The notes beneath the pieces were generated by a model that was not told the origin of the DNA, did not search any database, and saw only the letters and a list, made by a program, of their open reading frames with translations. Shown here piece after piece: positions 3,663 to 57,585 of a DNA stretch of 64,000 nucleotides. The position numbers were made by a program, and so were the translations under genes. Each line of letters opens with the position of its first letter. Positions within the stretch are counted from its first letter, which is position 1. Origin of the DNA: an uncultured Phycisphaerales bacterium (GTDB lineage Bacteria > Planctomycetota > Phycisphaerae > Tepidisphaerales > Tepidisphaeraceae); the NCBI GenBank assembly GCA_963758525.1, contig CAVWVQ010000003.1, positions 1,760,001 to 1,824,000 on the forward strand, in the 5' to 3' direction.

Positions 3663-4923
3663 GGTCAACAATCTCAATCCTGGGAAGCGGGAAGATCATC
3701 TTTCCGCCCGATTGTAAAAACTGAGATTCTCGAGCAATCAGGTTCGGGCGAAAATGCCAGGGCAGCACGAGAAAATAATCCGGCTTCATCGCATGCGCCG
3801 CCGCCTCGGAGACGATCGGTATATGCGTTCCCGGCGTGACGTGTCCGAATTTGTCCGGATTGACGTCGGCGATCGCGGGAATATCAGCTTTGGTCAGCTC
3901 GCAGTATTGCAGGATGACATTTCCCTTTGTCGAAGCTCCATAACCGAGCACCAGCTTGCCCGCCTTGCGAAGCCCGCTCAAAAGCTCTTTTAATTCATTC
4001 TTGTGTGCGACCATGCTTTGCTGGAACCGGCGGTAGCAATCCAGCGAGTTCAACCCGGCGGATTCCTCCTGCTCGATCAGGCGCGCGACGGCCTTGTCGG
4101 CGGCGGGATAGGCGCGCGCCCTGCCTGGCGACGGTGACGGCGAAGCTTCCCCCATTACTGTCATTGCGATTGACATCAATGATCTTCAGGCCGACGCGAT
4201 CGCTCATCCAGGCGATCTGCTTCATTGCATAGTACTCAAGATGTTCGTGGCAGATGGTGTCATATGAGTTTGTCTCCAGCATCGCGGGCAGATAACTCTG
4301 TTCAAAAACCCATATTCCGTCTTCAGCGAGCAGCTCGGCGATCTGAGCGGCAAACTCCGCGGGGCGCTCCAGGTCGTAAAACATCGCCACCGAAGTCACC
4401 ACGCGCGCTGGCGGGCGCCGTATTTTGCACGCACGACCGCGGCGGAGAAGAAGTCCGGTATCAGTTGGATGTCCGGCCGGTAAAACTTGCGAAACTTCGC
4501 TCCAGTGGGATCGACCCCGACCAGCGTTGCCTGCTCCGGCGGGTAACAGGAGAGCAATGTCCCATCGTTGCTGCCAATATCGATAACCAGGTCTCCCTTG
4601 CCAGGCTCCACTATCCGGCGCACATTGGCGACCAATTCTGCGAGGTGCCGGACCATCGTCTGATTCAGGCCCGAGCGGTAGCCATAGTTGTCGCCATAGA
4701 GTTCGGCTGGCTCATACGAATTGGCGAGTTGAACCAGACCGCAGCACTCGGCGTCATTCCCGTGGCATTTCACGAGTTCGAGCGGACCGCGCGTGAGTTC
4801 CATCTCCGGGCTCGTGGGAAAAACTCCGGTCTGCGATTGAATGCCGACGTTTACGATTGCGACGAGGTTTTGATTTCCGCAAATGCGACATCGGCGGGTC
4901 TTTGCGAATCTGTTCTGTTCCAT
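3655..4923 (-). CDS. NDP-sugar C-methyltransferase (Zn-binding, SAM-dependent), split by two frameshifts (~4400, ~4120)
   Basis: CRICG/C..CGLVQL Zn site, DIGSNDGTLL, YDTICHEHLEYY, GYGASTKGN, PDYFLVLPWHF spread over three consecutive ORFs. Confidence 0.85.
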
Positions 4924-10679: not shown

Positions 10680-11687
10680 TCACAGTTGAACGACGCTCGC
10701 GGTTTCGATGCTGCGCTTCTCGGCTTCCGCGATGCGCAGGCCCATGACGGCGTCGTCAGCGGTCACGCGTTGCGGGCGTCGTCCAGTTGCGACGCAGTCG
10801 AGAAAATAGCCAAGCTCTCCTATGTAGCCGTTCTGTTTCGCGGTTTCGATTGGCTCGACCTTGCCGTCGTGACAGGCCGTCAACTTCGGCTCGCGCGAGA
10901 GGTCGTACTCCACGGTCGCTTTCTCGAATTGTATCGTATAGCGCATCGTGAACGGCGTGCCGGGGCTGTTGGCCCAGCTTCCGGTTGCGGCGACGGTCGG
11001 GCCGTTGTCGTAGAGATATTGCGTGACGACGTGATCGATCTCACCGGACAGGCAGGAAAATCCCCGGCTGAAGACGCCGCGCGGCTTGCCGAAGAGGTGA
11101 GAGACAAAATCGACGTCATGCACGTGCAGATCGAGCAGCGCGCCGCCCGAGCGCGCGCCGTCACGAAACCATCCTTCCGGCCCTGAAGCGAGCCGGAAGA
11201 ATGCCGCAGAGCGAACTTTTCCGTAGCGGCCGTCGCGCACGGCCTCCGCGAGCCATTCCCACTCAGACCAGAACCGCATGCACATGGCGGGCATGAAAAA
11301 TCCCTTCGCCACGGCCGCGGCGTCGGCGATGCGCTGCGCGTCCGCGGCGGAGCGGGCCAGCGGTTTCTCGCACAGCACGTGTTTCCCGGCCGCCAGGGCG
11401 GCCAGGGCAAGCTCAGCATGATCCGGCGTCGGCGTGCAGATATCGATCACGTCGATATCGGGCCACGCCAGCAGATCCTGCCATTGCGTCGTCCCCTTGA
11501 TGCGGTCCATCGGAAGATGCTTTGAGATCCCATCGCCGAGGTTCCCCCAGACACCCGACAGATCGCCGCGGGCTCGCCGCGGATCGATGTCCGCGATCGC
11601 GAGCACTTCTGCTTCCGGCAGCTTCGCGTAGGCCTCGAAGTGGACCCGTCCCATAAATCCCATGCCGATCATTCCGATTCGAATCAT
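10680..11687 (-). CDS. Gfo/Idh/MocA oxidoreductase
   Basis: GMGFMG, ICTPTPDH, GKHVLCEKP, GGALLDLHVHD. Confidence 0.93.
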   Translation of the reverse strand: MIRIGMIGMGFMGRVHFEAYAKLPEAEVLAIADIDPRRARGDLSGVWGNLGDGISKHLPMDRIKGTTQWQDLLAWPDIDVIDICTPTPDHAELALAALAAGKHVLCEKPLARSAADAQRIADAAAVAKGFFMPAMCMRFWSEWEWLAEAVRDGRYGKVRSAAFFRLASGPEGWFRDGARSGGALLDLHVHDVDFVSHLFGKPRGVFSRGFSCLSGEIDHVVTQYLYDNGPTVAATGSWANSPGTPFTMRYTIQFEKATVEYDLSREPKLTACHDGKVEPIETAKQNGYIGELGYFLDCVATGRRPQRVTADDAVMGLRIAEAEKRSIETASVVQL

Positions 11688-52655: not shown

Positions 52656-52738
52656 CTCTTTCAAACTCCAGACCGCCCCGCTGCAATCCCTTTCATAAAG
52701 CGTCGATGGGGATTGTAATAGCTGATCGAGGCTTTGGC

Positions 52739-54808
52739 ATGATCCCGCCACTCCCAGCCGATGAATCGCAGCGCTTGGCCGCATTGCGCGAATACCAGGT
52801 TCTCGACACGCCGCCCGAGGAGGCGTTTGATGATTTGGTGAAGGTTGCCGCGGAAGTGTGCCGCTCCCCCGTAGCGCTGATGACGCTGCTCGACGAGAGC
52901 CGGCAATGGTTCAAGGCATGTGTCGGAACGAGCGCGACACATACTGCCCGCGACATTTCCTTTTGCGGGCACGCGATCCTCAGCCACGAAGTCATGATTG
53001 TTCCCGACACGACGCTGGACGCGCGGCTGAAGGACAATCCTGACGTGATCGCGGGGGCCCGCTACCGCTTTTATGCGGGGGCGCCGCTGGTTACGCGCGA
53101 CGGGCATGCCCTGGGGACGTTGTGCGTGCTGGATTATGTCGCGCGAGAGTTGTCCGCCTCGCAGATCGGCGCGCTGCAGGCGCTGAGCCGGCAGGTCATC
53201 TCGCAACTGGAATTGCGTCGGTTGCTGACGGTGTCGCGCAGGGTGGAGTCGGAGATGATTGCCGCCAACGAGGCGGCCGAGCGTGAGCGGCAGGTGTCGG
53301 AGGAGGCCAGCCGTGCAAAGAGCCGGTTTCTGGCGAACATGAGCCACGAGCTGCGGACGCCGTTGAATTCGATCATCGGCTACAGCGAGATGATCGAAGA
53401 GGAGGCGGCGGAGCTGGGGCAGGAGCAGACCGTTTCCGATCTGAAGAAGATTCAGCAGGCCGGTCGGCATCTGCTGCGATTGATCAACGACGTTCTGGAT
53501 TTCTCCAAGATCGAGGCCGGGAAGGCAAGCGTCTTCGTCGAGCCGATTGACGTGCGCCTGATGGTGCGCGATGCGGTTGAAACGATCCGGCCCATGGTCC
53601 AACAGCAACGCAATACCCTCGAGGTTGTCTGCGAGGATCGGATTGGATTGATGGATTCGGATCTGACGAAAATTCGCCAGTGCCTGTTTAACGTGCTGGG
53701 CAACGCGGCGAAGTTCACGGAGGACGGGGTGATTCGTCTCCATGCCGCGCGCGTCCAGCGCGACCACCGCGAATGGATCGAATTTCGGATCAGCGACACC
53801 GGCATCGGGATCAGCGACGAGCAGTGCTCGCGGCTCTTTGCCCCCTTCACGCAGGCCGACCCGGACATGCAGCGCAAGTACGGCGGCACGGGACTGGGCC
53901 TGGCGATCATGCGCCAGTTCTGCTGGCTGATGGGCGGCGACATTGCCGTTGAGAGCGAGCAGGGAAAAGGCGCGACGTTCACGATCCGGCTGCCCGTCCA
54001 CTGTCCGCGGGATGAGCCCGCGCCGGCGCTGGCGGCGCTGACGGCTGCCCTTCCCGCGCCGGGCTCTGCCAAGACCGTGCTGGTGATCGATGATGACGAC
54101 GCGGCGCGCGAGTTGATGGTTCGCCATCTGCAGCGAGAGGGATTCACGGCCGTGGCGGCGTCGTCGGGTCCCGAGGGACTGCGGATTGCCCGGGAGATAC
54201 ATCCCGCGGCGATCACGCTCGATGTGGTGATGCCTCAGATGGACGGATGGGCGGTGCTGGCCGCGCTGAAGGCGGACGCCGAGCTGGCCGCGATTCCGGT
54301 GATCATGCTGAGCATGGTGGATGACAAGCAGATGGGCTACGCGCTGGGAGCGGCCGACTACCTGGTCAAGCCGGTGGGGCGCGGGCAATTGGCCGAGCTG
54401 CTGGACCAATACAAGACGGAGAAGGCCGATCGCCCGGTGCTGGTGGTGGAGGACGACGTCGACACGCGCAACATGCTTTGCCGGACCCTGCAGTTGGAAG
54501 GATGGACGGTGACGTCGGCGGAGGACGGGCAGGACGCGTTGCGGTGCGTCGCCGAGCGCCGGCCCGCGCTGATTTTGCTGGACCTCATGATGCCGCGCAT
54601 GAACGGCTTTGAGTTCATCGCCGAGATGCGCAAAGTGGACAGCTATCGGTCGATTCCGATCGTTGTCGTCACCGCCCGGCACCTCACCGCCGACGATCGC
54701 AACCAACTGGACGGAGCCGTCTACAAAGTGCTTCGCAAAGTGGCTTCAACCCGCGAAGAACTGATGCAGTCGGTCAGCGAGTTGATGAACCGGAGGATTA
54801 AGCGCTGA
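52739..54808 (+). CDS. Hybrid histidine kinase GAF-HisKA-HATPase-REC-REC
   Basis: SFCGHAI GAF, FLANMSHELRTPLN, NAAKFT, DTGIG, GGTGLGL, two receiver domains. Confidence 0.95.
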   Translation: MIPPLPADESQRLAALREYQVLDTPPEEAFDDLVKVAAEVCRSPVALMTLLDESRQWFKACVGTSATHTARDISFCGHAILSHEVMIVPDTTLDARLKDNPDVIAGARYRFYAGAPLVTRDGHALGTLCVLDYVARELSASQIGALQALSRQVISQLELRRLLTVSRRVESEMIAANEAAERERQVSEEASRAKSRFLANMSHELRTPLNSIIGYSEMIEEEAAELGQEQTVSDLKKIQQAGRHLLRLINDVLDFSKIEAGKASVFVEPIDVRLMVRDAVETIRPMVQQQRNTLEVVCEDRIGLMDSDLTKIRQCLFNVLGNAAKFTEDGVIRLHAARVQRDHREWIEFRISDTGIGISDEQCSRLFAPFTQADPDMQRKYGGTGLGLAIMRQFCWLMGGDIAVESEQGKGATFTIRLPVHCPRDEPAPALAALTAALPAPGSAKTVLVIDDDDAARELMVRHLQREGFTAVAASSGPEGLRIAREIHPAAITLDVVMPQMDGWAVLAALKADAELAAIPVIMLSMVDDKQMGYALGAADYLVKPVGRGQLAELLDQYKTEKADRPVLVVEDDVDTRNMLCRTLQLEGWTVTSAEDGQDALRCVAERRPALILLDLMMPRMNGFEFIAEMRKVDSYRSIPIVVVTARHLTADDRNQLDGAVYKVLRKVASTREELMQSVSELMNRRIKR

Positions 54809-54904
54809 GCGGAACATCGGGCTGAAGCTTGTGGCGGGTGTCTGGCCGCCGGTATCATTTTCATCGATTCAGGGGCGCCAGCCGTTCGACAACGAGTAGG
54901 GAGC

Positions 54905-55348
54905 ATGGTCCATCCAGCCGTTAACCCATCTCCCGACTATTTTCGGCGCGATCAGCTGGCGGGCGTCACGGGGCCGGATCTTCATAAAAGCTGCACCTTC
55001 GCGGAGCACATCGTTCGCGCGCGCGGCAAACGGACCCAGTTCACAAGCGTGACTCTTGCACCCGACAAATGCCACGATTTCGGGGAAAGCATCTATCGTC
55101 TGCTGCGGCCACAAGTCGATAACGCCGGGCATGCCGTCGTGGAACATTCGGCGCTCCTGGCAGCACTCCTGCAGGCGGCGCGGAATGAGGAAAGGGCGGA
55201 GCGAGCGAGGGCCTTACAAGCGATCCGGTACGCAAGAAGGCGATTAGAAGGGCTCGTGAGATGGAGATTCGACGTGTCGCGGATCGAGCGTAAGGATATC
55301 ATCAGTTTTGCCACGACCCAGATTGCCGGGTTCTTTGTGAAAGTGTAG
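54905..55348 (+). CDS. Hypothetical protein, candidate ADP-ribosyltransferase-fold
   Basis: GGGAG RBS; YFRRD, EHIV, FTSVT, EGLV. Confidence 0.55.
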   Translation: MVHPAVNPSPDYFRRDQLAGVTGPDLHKSCTFAEHIVRARGKRTQFTSVTLAPDKCHDFGESIYRLLRPQVDNAGHAVVEHSALLAALLQAARNEERAERARALQAIRYARRRLEGLVRWRFDVSRIERKDIISFATTQIAGFFVKV

Positions 55349-55350
55349 TC

Positions 55351-56154
55351 ATGGATTCCCTGTTCAGTTGCCGAAACTGCATCCAGAATTGCGGCCAGAG
55401 CCTGAACCTGGGGCGGGGCGCCGGCTACTGCTTGCATCATAATTCGCTGATCCAGGATCCGGAAGACACGACGTGCAAGTACCTGCACCGGCAGGATCTT
55501 CCTCGGTTCGTGGTGGAAGAAGGGCTTGAGGAGCACGCAGTCGAGTTTCTGCAATTCCCGGCAATGGTTACGCTCAGCACGAAGCAACCGCTTCGCAAGC
55601 AGTGGTACAGCGAGCGTGTGGACTGGGAGCGGGGTGAATTTGACCCGCTCGTATTGCTTAGCGCTCGTTACCATCGGGAGAGTCATGCCTGGGTCATGAT
55701 TCAGACGTTGTCGGGGCGGGTAGACGGTCGCGTCTCAATGGCGCACGCGGCGCTGATACGTCGGTACATGCACCAATGCGGCACTTGGACAAGTTCATAC
55801 CGCCTCGTACTTTCTTTGCTCCGTGAACTCGATGCGAAACCGCAGTTTGACCCAGCGGACCTGGTCATTCGGGACGGTGACGACGAGCAATCGGTTGCCG
55901 ATGACGCCGTCTGGGACGTTGTCTTCAGCAGACTTGCGGCGATTCAGGAGTACGGCTGGCATTCGGGGCTCCAAGAGCTGCTCTGGGCCACCGACGGTTT
56001 CAATGGCGCCTTAACTGACTTCGATTGGGATCTGTTGCAGCCCGAACTCGCGGCCAAGAGAAGGACTTGGACAGAGCAAGTCATCGACCATGCAAAGCAA
56101 CAGGGAGAGTTCTTCCCGCCGGTTGTGGTTGAATCACCGGAGGAAAATCGGTGA
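55351..56154 (+). CDS. Hypothetical protein with N-terminal Cys cluster
   Basis: CRNCIQNC...GYCLHH...TTC; starts 2 nt after upstream stop. Confidence 0.65.
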   Translation: MDSLFSCRNCIQNCGQSLNLGRGAGYCLHHNSLIQDPEDTTCKYLHRQDLPRFVVEEGLEEHAVEFLQFPAMVTLSTKQPLRKQWYSERVDWERGEFDPLVLLSARYHRESHAWVMIQTLSGRVDGRVSMAHAALIRRYMHQCGTWTSSYRLVLSLLRELDAKPQFDPADLVIRDGDDEQSVADDAVWDVVFSRLAAIQEYGWHSGLQELLWATDGFNGALTDFDWDLLQPELAAKRRTWTEQVIDHAKQQGEFFPPVVVESPEENR

Positions 56155-56167
56155 CTCGCCGACAGTA

Positions 56168-57193
56168 TTACCCTGGAATGGGAAACGTCACTTCAATCCA
56201 CGCGCAGTCGCTTCTGGCCTTGATGATCGGATTCTTCATTGCCGCGGGCAGCAGAACCGTCTCTCCACGTTTGAGAGGCGTGGGTTCCGCGACGCCGTCG
56301 ACGCGAATTTCCGCTTCCCCTTCCAGCATCATCCAGACGACCGGATCGTCGTACGGCACCGGCTGCTCGACGCCATTGCTGAGCTTCACCTTGTCCATGT
56401 TGAAATAGGGACAGGCCACGAGATGCGTTACCGTTGTCGAAGCGGTTGCGAGATGGGTCTGCTCCGGCTGCGGCGCGGGCTTGCCGGAGAAGTCGATGCA
56501 CTGCAGGGCCTGGTCGACGTGCAGCGTTCGGAGCTTGCCGGTCGAGGGATCGACGCGGTTGAAGTCGAACACGCGGAATGTCGTGTCACTGGGGGTCTGG
56601 ACCTCGGCGGCGAGAATCCCGGCGCCCAGCGCGTGAACGGTGCCGCTGGGAAGGTAATAGCATTCGCCTTCCTTGACGGGGATGGATTTGAGAAAGCGTT
56701 CGCTCGTGCCATCGCTTAGGGACGCGCGGTATTGATCTTTGCTGACGCCCGGGGCGAGGCCCTTGAAGATGCGCGCGCCGGGATCATTTTCGAGAACGTA
56801 CCAGGCCTCGCTCTTCAAATGCGCTTTGGGATGCGCGTCGGCATATTCCTGCGGAGGATGCACCTGCACGGACAGATCCTCGCGCGCATCGAGAAACTTG
56901 ATGAGAATGGGAAACTGGCCCGCGCCGGCGAGTGGGACGTTGCCTGTCAAATCGCGGCCGAACTCCGCGACTGCCCAATGGAGCGACTTGCCGGCGAGCG
57001 GGCCGTTAGCGATCCGGGCACTGACCCAATCGCTGGTTTTCTCCACCACGCCGGGCGGGAAATCAAACAACTCCCAGCTTTCGCCGATCGGCTTGTTGGG
57101 CGGGAGAGGCTTGCCGAGCACCGTTTCAATTTTCCGTCCGCCCCACATCTTCTCAACCAGACGGGGGTGAAACTTCAGAGGGTATAACGCCAT
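56168..57193 (-). CDS. manA: Type I phosphomannose isomerase (cupin)
   Basis: WGG, IGESWE, FPILIKFLDAREDLSVQVHP, KSEAWY, GTVHALGAG, EVQTPSDTTFR. Confidence 0.9.
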   Translation of the reverse strand: MALYPLKFHPRLVEKMWGGRKIETVLGKPLPPNKPIGESWELFDFPPGVVEKTSDWVSARIANGPLAGKSLHWAVAEFGRDLTGNVPLAGAGQFPILIKFLDAREDLSVQVHPPQEYADAHPKAHLKSEAWYVLENDPGARIFKGLAPGVSKDQYRASLSDGTSERFLKSIPVKEGECYYLPSGTVHALGAGILAAEVQTPSDTTFRVFDFNRVDPSTGKLRTLHVDQALQCIDFSGKPAPQPEQTHLATASTTVTHLVACPYFNMDKVKLSNGVEQPVPYDDPVVWMMLEGEAEIRVDGVAEPTPLKRGETVLLPAAMKNPIIKARSDCAWIEVTFPIPG

Positions 57194-57234
57194 GCCCCGT
57201 GTTGTAGCGGAAAAAGTCGAGAGGGGAAGCCTTG

Positions 57235-57312
57235 AGGGTATCAGGGTGTCAGGGTTCAGGGTGTCAGGGTTCAGCGGGAACACGACGACTGAACCCTGCG
57301 CCCTGACACCCT
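57235..57312. repeat. Heptamer/octamer tract (CAGGGTT/CAGGGTGT) with inverted copy
   Basis: GGGTATCAGGGTGTCAGGGTTCAGGGTGTCAGGGTTCAG ... CTGAACCCTG..CCCTGACACCC; similar unit at ~50079. Confidence 0.65.
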
Positions 57313-57381
57313 CGCGTCGAATGCAAATCCAATACGTGCTCCGCTGCGCGTCGCGGCTAACCTCGGGGGCCTCGCTGCAAC

Positions 57382-57585
57382 TCATTGATTGTCGGTCGTC
57401 TTGGATTTTTCCGTGACTACGTCGCCGTTGGGGGCAACCTTTTTCACGGTCTCTTCATGGGTCGTGGTGCCGTCGGAATGTTGGACGGTTGTCTCATCGC
57501 GCTTGACCTCGCGATCACATCCGACCACCATCGGGAGAGCGACCAACATGGACACGGACAACGCGGTTGACACGAGCTTACGCAT
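57382..57585 (-). CDS. Small lipoprotein
   Basis: GAGGAG RBS, hydrophobic signal, VVGC lipobox, Thr/Asp-rich tail. Confidence 0.7.
   Translation of the reverse strand: MRKLVSTALSVSMLVALPMVVGCDREVKRDETTVQHSDGTTTHEETVKKVAPNGDVVTEKSKTTDNQ

Follow-up and report, generated by a model that had tools for sequence, protein, structure and literature searches.

The two-gene cassette and the predicted fold of gene A

A 64,000-nucleotide (nt) stretch of DNA from an uncultured Phycisphaerales bacterium (contig CAVWVQ010000003.1, positions 1,760,001 to 1,824,000; hereafter the window) carries a compact pair of plus-strand genes which we interpret as a probable toxin-antitoxin (TA) module. Gene A (54905-55348, +) encodes a stand-alone protein of 147 amino acids (aa) with the predicted fold of an R-S-E-type ADP-ribosyltransferase (ART), the predicted toxin. 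Gene B (55351-56154, +) encodes an acidic partner of 267 aa, the predicted antitoxin, for which no family or fold match was found. The genes are separated by 2 nt, the whole pair spans 1.25 kb, and it lies between a hybrid kinase gene with GAF, HisKA, HATPase and receiver domains upstream (52706-54808, +) and a convergent phosphomannose isomerase gene, manA, downstream (56168-57385, -). An earlier interpretation made from the letters of the window, here the sequence-only reading, had described this tightly coupled arrangement and had recognised no named family for either gene. The coordinates of the open reading frames (ORFs) agree with the former, and the scans agree with the latter, as neither gene has a family in Pfam, PADLOC, NCBIfam or PHROGs (two weak PHROG matches, E 0.01-0.04 over 23-35 residues, were disregarded).

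The predicted model of gene A has a predicted local distance difference test score (pLDDT) of 90.6, with strands at residues 13-17, 46-50, 62-66, 77-79, 115-119 and 144-146. In a fold search against 48,161 PDB representatives the best 20 matches were all ART-superfamily or ART-fold toxins, headed by TreX (Z 6.7, root-mean-square deviation (rmsd) 3.0, 94 residues aligned) and pertussis S1 (Z 6.7, rmsd 3.3, 109 aligned), with EcPltA (Z 6.5) and Scabin (Z 6.0) also among the matches, and in a second structural listing 50 of 50 entries were ARTs. DarT (Z 3.3), ParST/RES (2.9) and MbcT (2.5) matched more weakly. Of the members of gene A's ESM Atlas neighbours at 0.93-0.95, 11-46% have Pertussis_S1, Scabin-like or NarE family assignments. 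The predicted ART fold, which had been proposed in the sequence-only reading, is a confident one. At the level of sequence, 24 and 116 ART homologues scanned member by member against Pfam had scattered weak matches only, PDB sequence searches with four profiles gave none that was significant, and the top PDB sequence match of gene A, RhsF-CT (9ZDM), was likewise not significant (E = 0.25). A word-indexed search found 109 homologues, and a HMMER scan of 1.84 billion representatives found 82 cluster representatives, the longest of 273 aa. Gene A has a net charge of +8 (median +5 in its clade, clade 1). A role as a secreted toxin was rejected, as no hydrophobic signal or membrane segment was found in gene A.

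A tblastn search with gene B led to a 25%-identical gene on the plasmid NZ_CP135728, which is preceded by a 143-aa gene and adjoins HicAB, ParDE and a tyrosine recombinase. The upstream gene defines a sister clade, clade 2, of 308 proteins in a set that spans 78-258 aa only. Comparison of the two clades with hhalign gave 99.5% for gene A and 97.6% for gene B, at a gene A identity of about 20%, and both genes were present in all three sister-clade loci read.

The motifs of gene A run in the order YFRRD (12-16), EHIV (34-37), FTSVT (46-50) and EGLV (115-118), so that the ordered R, H, S and E noted in the sequence-only reading are present, and they are conserved in both clades. The Y-R pairing that it had suggested was not upheld, the catalytic Arg being R14, preceded by F13. 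R14 (codon 54944-54946, +), the inferred NAD-binding Arg, lies in the first strand, 13-17, in an F-R-x-D motif and is kept in 102 of 104 aligned clade-1 sequences and 115 of 116 of the sister clade; D16 is kept in 102 and 115, respectively, and R15 is variable (89/104 in clade 1, Gly in the sister clade). H35 (codon 55007-55009, +; 103/104 and 116/116) lies in helix 32-37, between strands 1 and 2, a position which we take to resemble that of H35 in pertussis S1. S48 (codon 55046-55048, +), invariant at 104/104 and 116/116, lies in strand 46-50 in a T-S-x-S/T motif, and 11 residues past it stands the aromatic F59 (codon 55079-55081, +; 100/104 and 115/116), a spacing matched by S1445 and Y1456 of RhsF-CT as described in PMC13324451. 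E115 (codon 55247-55249, +), the inferred catalytic Glu, starts strand 5; it is found in all 104 and all 116 sequences, and in 65 of 65 sequences spanning both clades. That R14, D16, H35, S48, F59 and E115 are shared at about 20% identity argues for catalytic, not merely structural, conservation.

The placement of R14, S48 and E115 in strands 13-17, 46-50 and 115-119 is that of the R-S-E clade, as described for TreX, where R15 ends strand 1, S54 lies in strand 2 and E102 starts strand 5 (PMC11606950), and also in PMC8120803. Gene A departs from this clade at the ARTT (ADP-ribosylating toxin turn-turn) loop, for which the motif aromatic-x-x-(E/Q)-x-E is given (PMC8120803): no such motif was found in gene A, and position -2 from E115 holds R in clade 1 and W or H in clade 2, i.e., there is no (E/Q)xE. 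At the usual place of the loop, directly before strand 5, sits a helical hairpin of residues 81-113 (55145-55243, +; helices 81-94 and 97-113), the predicted main docking site for gene B. At one locus (L007:10244-10310; our loci are numbered with an L) the hairpin is extended in frame by three tandem 21-nt copies.

The partner protein and its predicted complex with gene A

Gene B, with 256 homologues, begins with a cysteine domain (55351-55500, +) of the pattern C7-x2-C10-x3-C14-x12-C27-x2-H30-x11-C42 and continues as a helical domain (55501-56124, +). The Cys cluster described in the sequence-only reading stood in part. C7, C10, C27 and C42 are invariant, as are N9, N13, Q16, T40, T41, R47 and D49 in the same domain. 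C14 is present in 89 of 119 sequences and H30 is replaced by Trp in myxobacterial partners, so both were rejected as core metal ligands and the invariant Cys set is the remaining four, for which one four-Cys zinc site is the simplest and a likely interpretation of the sequence pattern; the metal-binding sensor suggested in the sequence-only reading is at most a candidate role. Across 15 sequences from both clades the invariant residues further include G21, G25, H62, D98, R127, L135, R137 and W188. The acidic helical continuation is borne out by a net charge of -15 (median -11) and by a model with pLDDT 92.6 that is nearly all-helical but for two strands of 3 residues each. Foldseek found nothing at E ≤ 0.001 for this fold in the PDB and viral libraries, the best VIA match (Z 7.2, to a designed helical repeat) is a generic helical one, and the best ESM Atlas value of 0.76 is a lead only. 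Macrodomain, NADAR and ADP-ribosylglycohydrolase (ARH) models in Pfam, PADLOC and NCBIfam did not match gene B, and the ARH fold, that of the partner in the DraT/DraG and Tre1/Tri1 pairs, was not among the fold-search matches listed, an absence which does not exclude ARH.

The two genes stay together, as expected of the coupled operon of a type II TA system and as the sequence-only reading required. Gene B follows gene A at 28 of 29 assessable genome loci (3 more lie at a contig edge) from Chlorobi, alpha- and gammaproteobacteria, Desulfobacterota, Planctomycetota, Myxococcota, Eremiobacterota and Acidobacteriota. Gene A precedes gene B at 69 of 74 assessable metagenome loci, 5 others being too short, in a set that comprised the best 80 of 130 matches, selected by gene B. 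The pairwise identities of gene A rise and fall with those of gene B (rho 0.565 over 44 pairs, permutation maximum 0.312), and the C-terminal half of gene B diverges between the clades in step with the hairpin of gene A.

The direct protein complex that also characterises type II systems is here a predicted one. The A-B complex scored 0.90 and the best of three controls 0.00, with a contact agreement of at least 77% between runs and at least 89 for the pLDDT of the partner. Among the calibration pairs, 116 of 157 solved and 2 of 215 mismatched ones attained the score mark, counts that apply only approximately to the alignments used here. PDB searches turned up no similar complex, which makes it unlikely that the model passed by memorisation. 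The predicted interface comprises residues 37-42, 54-60 and 89-112 of gene A and 2-5, 49-65, 185-199 and 212-224 of gene B; the last three segments, in the helical domain, make up most of the gene B side, and most of the Cys domain is free. The modelling thus suggests that the two proteins probably bind each other.

Decay, distribution and neighbourhood of the cassette

We grouped 117 loci into 87 lineages, from which 13 at contig edges were dropped, leaving 74 that could be scored. Both genes are intact in 53, and gene A is broken or deleted beside an intact gene B in 16; among the rest gene A is in frame with gene B damaged in 2, both are broken in 2, and gene A is truncated with gene B absent in 1. 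Three groups with mixed intact and broken copies were scored by majority, and L029, which missed the cut-off by one residue, was counted intact. Gene A carries in-frame stops at L018, L022, L024, L044, L045 and L102, the other breaks being frameshifts and deletions, and at L059, L066, L103 and L152 it is reduced to its last codons before an intact gene B. The same pattern of decay is seen at one sister-clade locus (L139). Since the metagenome set was selected on gene B, the fair test is the set of loci selected on gene A, where the ratio is 6:1 (p = 0.009 against an expectation of 0.35 from length). Decay of the toxin before the antitoxin is reported for chromosomal TA systems, as described in PMC13617665, a pattern which the gene A-first decay matches.

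The distribution of the cassette is patchy. Gene B turned up in a single one of 100 relatives and in 0 of 60 within the family. For gene A, two class samples of 399 and 400 other genomes gave 1 and 0 finds, and one family gave 6 of 119. No member of either clade was detected in the IMG/VR viral contigs or in 50,697 phage records, and 1 of 72,556 plasmids carries the cassette. Within their own genome genes A and B have one match each, and the closest named homologues are planctomycete, which makes a planctomycete host likely. The GC content at third codon positions is 0.66-0.68 in the cassette genes and 0.74-0.82 in five nearby genes, a mild foreign signature.

Traces of insertion were seen at some loci. 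In Electrothrix the site is empty in five genomes, and L008 holds an insert of 1.7 kb bounded by the duplicated 3' end of a trypsin-PDZ gene, presumably degP, and by a 40-nt palindromic repeat pair which we take to be repetitive extragenic palindromic (REP) elements of the GTAG type. At several variable Electrothrix sites, palindromic repeats lie next to small genes of foreign origin (L008:9805-9937 and 11270-11309; L149, L150, L152, L141), the gene A deletion of L152 ends at such a repeat, and REP-associated traffic of cassettes is possible in this genus. Strong flanking direct repeats were found at 5 of 51 cassettes tested. Duplicated host gene ends also adjoin the cassette at L026 (about 120 nt of the typA/bipA 3' end), L019 (about 62 nt of the 3' end of a short-chain dehydrogenase/reductase gene) and L150 (about 44 nt of the start of a Na+/H+ exchanger-like gene). 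At L011 (L011:7760-12054, an Azospirillum metagenome-assembled genome) the cassette interrupts a CO-dehydrogenase-like operon between its molybdopterin large-subunit and FAD-subunit genes, no more than about 35 nt away from each, which indicates that it entered the middle of the operon. The window also shows a likeness between the 3'-terminal 28 nt of the kinase gene (54781-54808, +) and the 3'-terminal 27 nt of gene B (56128-56154, +), which are read in different frames; these are possible left and right copies of a decayed target duplication. This likeness was noticed post hoc, and of 2,090 TGA-ending long ORF ends in the genome 3 have a score as high, probably including that of the kinase. 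No empty site was found for the window locus, manA being followed by a different gene in two same-genus genomes.

The neighbourhood gives little support to the defence module proposed in the sequence-only reading. At 28 genome loci the neighbours (148 proteins) are mostly housekeeping or metabolic, a restriction-modification, TA, HEPN or transposase gene stands beside the cassette at about 7 of the 28, and no conserved third gene was found among 1,973 ORFs of 33 loci. At 45 further loci, 16 of 148 neighbours, spread over 13 of these loci, match PADLOC models, among them DruE, type I restriction, IetA and TIR; some are generic, and the counts come without a background control (the scans covered all but 27 of 323 neighbour proteins, each batch against one library). 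Defence linkage is weak for these reasons, and the window copy has no PADLOC-type defence neighbour beside it. The sole relative among the 100 that has the cassette (G068, L142:1419-13904) carries it next to integrase-like transposase, PIN-like and large helicase- or nuclease-looking genes, labelled by eye, which is possibly a defence island. L038 has two cassette copies about 3.7 kb apart (375-797 and 4119-4541), adjoining the candidates PDC-S02 and PDC-S09. A common third gene of about 153 aa abuts gene B at the myxobacterial loci L024:3926-4390, L025:11325-11786 and L029:11316-11774; it has no Pfam family in the two copies scanned and is absent from L027 and L030.

At the window locus, a GC-rich hairpin with a T-rich tail between the kinase gene and gene A (54832-54851, +) is terminator-like, and the number of such hairpins is at chance level (2 found, 1.8 expected in shuffles). 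No sigma-70 promoter match or promoter consensus was found at the locus, where operators were not systematically searched. No RNA holder was among the matches listed, an absence that carries no weight as evidence. The listed manA ORF starts some 45-60 codons before the start used in relatives (MALYPLKF near 57200), and the true start is probably later.

Interpretation and comparison with known systems

We consider the pair to be a type II TA module, in which an R-S-E ART toxin is held by a binding antitoxin, with a probability of roughly two in three. Its fold and complex are predictions from modelling, and the TA reading that had been made from the sequence is supported by the predicted complex and the one-sided decay. 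In such a module gene A would bind NAD+ in the cleft of R14, S48 and E115 and pass ADP-ribose to an essential target, and gene B would clamp the inserted hairpin and the loops 37-42 and 54-60, masking the target-binding face and leaving the NAD site unplugged. The four-Cys zinc site would likely stabilise gene B and, as it lies outside the interface, could be a trigger point. Loss or inactivation of gene B would free gene A and stop growth, which would make the cassette addictive.

We give an even chance to a nucleic acid target, with a translation RNA as the probable kind. This slight preference comes from gene A being basic, lacking ExE/QxE and having as its nearest, non-significant, PDB sequence neighbour RhsF-CT, described as an RNA-modifying ART (PMC13324451) that targets tRNA-Thr (PMC13617354). 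Protein-modifying ARTs tie for the best fold match, which counts against RNA, and the argument is weakened by the less basic gene A of the sister clade (median net charge +3 versus +5). The cassette may serve as an abortive phage defence, although this is less likely than not. Unlikely as a whole is the fuller picture of a new class of ADP-ribosylating TA systems, in which a stand-alone R-S-E enzyme would modify host RNA, an antitoxin of new fold would grip the hairpin that replaces the ARTT loop and keep the NAD site open, its free Cys4 zinc domain would sense phage infection or oxidative stress and so release the toxin, and the cassette would have spread across phyla by insertion with target duplication and without a mobility gene.

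Several results weigh against the TA interpretation. The best Z of gene A (6.7) is moderate and below the tool's caution line of 8, a Foldseek search with gene A gave no match at E ≤ 0.001, its Atlas recognition of 2189 is under the line of 2300, and its sequence could not be linked significantly to a known ART family. Given the moderate Z and the lack of a Foldseek match, the case for an ART rests on the consistency of the match lists and on the motifs. R14, S48 and E115 lie outside the predicted interface, so that neutralisation is not evident from the model; TriX and RhsFi are described as occluding the active site of their toxins (PMC11606950, PMC13324451). No helix-turn-helix or ribbon-helix-helix family, as a DNA-binding domain for autoregulation, matched gene B, and with a mean identity of 0.543 against 0.539 it is as conserved as gene A, which in our judgement is high for a pure binder. 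The decay ratio of 16:2 is biased because the metagenome loci were chosen as the best gene B matches, some single-base breaks and indels may be assembly errors, and L016 and L091/L092 keep gene A in frame with gene B damaged (the L016 gene A has Pro at the near-invariant L117, and the L091 gene B retains the interface).

The same evidence can be read in other ways. A toxin held by gene B could destroy NAD+ instead, as a glycohydrolase or phosphorylase like MbcT or Tse6, which would suit a gene A that has a hairpin in place of a canonical ARTT loop, lacks ExE/QxE and counts MbcT, ParT and RES toxins among its structural matches. We regard this as improbable, as those matches are weak (Z 2.5-2.9 versus 6.0-6.7 for transferases), docking away from the NAD cleft would be a poor way to silence an NADase, and the conserved basic surface of gene A would be needless. 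The docking of gene B outside the catalytic residues, its high conservation and the mostly metabolic neighbours would also fit a gene B that is an activator, scaffold or substrate in a non-toxic, DraT-like regulatory ADP-ribosylation under metal or redox control, and a helper-dependent ART exists in TreX-TrxA, as described in PMC11606950. On that account gene B, which is 1.8 times longer, should break first, and the opposite is seen; with no conserved target gene nearby and a very patchy distribution, such a regulator is more improbable again.

The invariant polar residues of gene B outside the interface (N9, N13, Q16, T40, T41, R47, R127 and R137) and its persistence alone after deletion of gene A are what would be expected if gene B, besides binding gene A, were an enzymatic antitoxin of new fold, possibly zinc-dependent, that strips ADP-ribose from the target in the manner of DarG, NADAR or Tri1. 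The absence of any macrodomain, NADAR or ADP-ribosylglycohydrolase model match, and a C-terminal half that diverges with the gene A hairpin as a binding surface would, make this very improbable. Finally, the order of toxin then partner, and the fact that both TreX, the top structure, and RhsF-CT, the top PDB sequence (E = 0.25), are Rhs tips, could suggest an orphan polymorphic-toxin tip with its immunity gene, used in interbacterial attack of the Rhs or contact-dependent inhibition type. This is the least probable of these readings: none of the 82 clade-1 HMMER matches, at most 273 aa long, is fused to a carrier, no hydrophobic signal segment is seen in gene A, which carries its own start codon, and no Rhs, VgrG or PAAR family was found among the 148 neighbours of the 28 genome loci.

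Returning to the TA interpretation, the nearest known pairs are the Rhs pairs TreX-TriX and RhsF-CT (TreThr)-RhsFi, which share with A-B a minimal ART of about 130-150 aa, with R in strand 1, S in strand 2 and E in strand 5, and a downstream partner (as described in PMC11606950, PMC13324451 and PMC13617354). RhsF-CT and gene A further have in common a D-P/L-S...EH[IV]...TQF-x-S pattern with an aromatic residue 11 past the Ser (E = 0.25, not significant). In contrast to these tips, gene A has no Rhs or type VI secretion system carrier and has its own start codon, an inserted hairpin, an extra C-terminal helix and no ExE, and gene B differs from TriX and RhsFi in being twice as large, with a Cys4 domain and a predicted docking outside the catalytic residues.

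Gene A also resembles pertussis S1, EcPltA, CARDS, Scabin/ScARP and pierisin in fold (Z 4.4-6.7), in the RxD, S and E residues and in the His between strands 1 and 2. R-S-E toxins of the pertussis S1 type undergo secretion or delivery and come with B subunits or signal peptides. They carry (Q/E)xE and have no dedicated Cys4 partner gene, and gene A is the opposite on both counts. The pertussis S1/Scabin/pierisin clade is named Tox-ART-RSE in PMC3482391, where Imm41 and ADP-ribosylglycohydrolase are its listed immunity proteins; gene B has no Pfam match to either. As a small selfish pair with no mobility gene and with duplicated host flanks of at least 30 bp at some loci, the cassette is like restriction-modification genes inserted with long target duplication, as described in PMC2853133; it differs in its cargo, and a strong flanking direct repeat is found in 5 of 51 only.

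Among TA systems, CmdTAC (PD-T4-9) is likewise a toxin-first ART operon with an antitoxin that binds the toxin, and CmdT is described as an H-Y-[EDQ] ART that depends on a SecB-like third gene and is paired with an antitoxin that is largely unstructured (PMC11618068). Membership of CmdTAC was rejected, as the A-B pair has an R-S-E and not an H-Y-E toxin, two genes only with no conserved third one, a fully folded partner and no PADLOC match. DarTG, ParST/RES-Xre and MbcTA share with A-B a cytoplasmic ART-fold toxin and an adjacent antitoxin, and are far weaker structural matches to gene A (Z 3.3, 2.9 and 2.5). The antitoxins of these three systems are macrodomain/NADAR enzymes or Xre-type proteins, and gene B matches none of them in Pfam, NCBIfam or PADLOC. 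A macrodomain has an alpha/beta fold, which the almost all-helical gene B does not fit; DarG is described as a macrodomain protein, and with no macrodomain or NADAR match in gene B, no DarT match to gene A in Pfam or PADLOC, and a Z of 3.3 against 6.7 for TreX, membership of DarTG was rejected too.

A full-text literature search found no description of the A-B pair, which supplementary candidate lists of defence-discovery papers could hold, and it would apparently be a new, undescribed TA family, with a gene B that is confidently predicted and 50% conserved and yet has no fold match. The ART TA systems that we found described belong to different catalytic classes (DarT, CmdT, RES) and have each brought to light a new target of ADP-ribosylation. 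R-S-E ARTs have been met chiefly as weapons, secreted or injected, and as phage enzymes. If the TA interpretation is true, these systems would gain a new target chemistry and a new mode of inhibition from an R-S-E toxin that stays in the cytoplasm with a dedicated antitoxin, and the pair would provide a simple model for how the ART fold moves between self-directed and exported roles.

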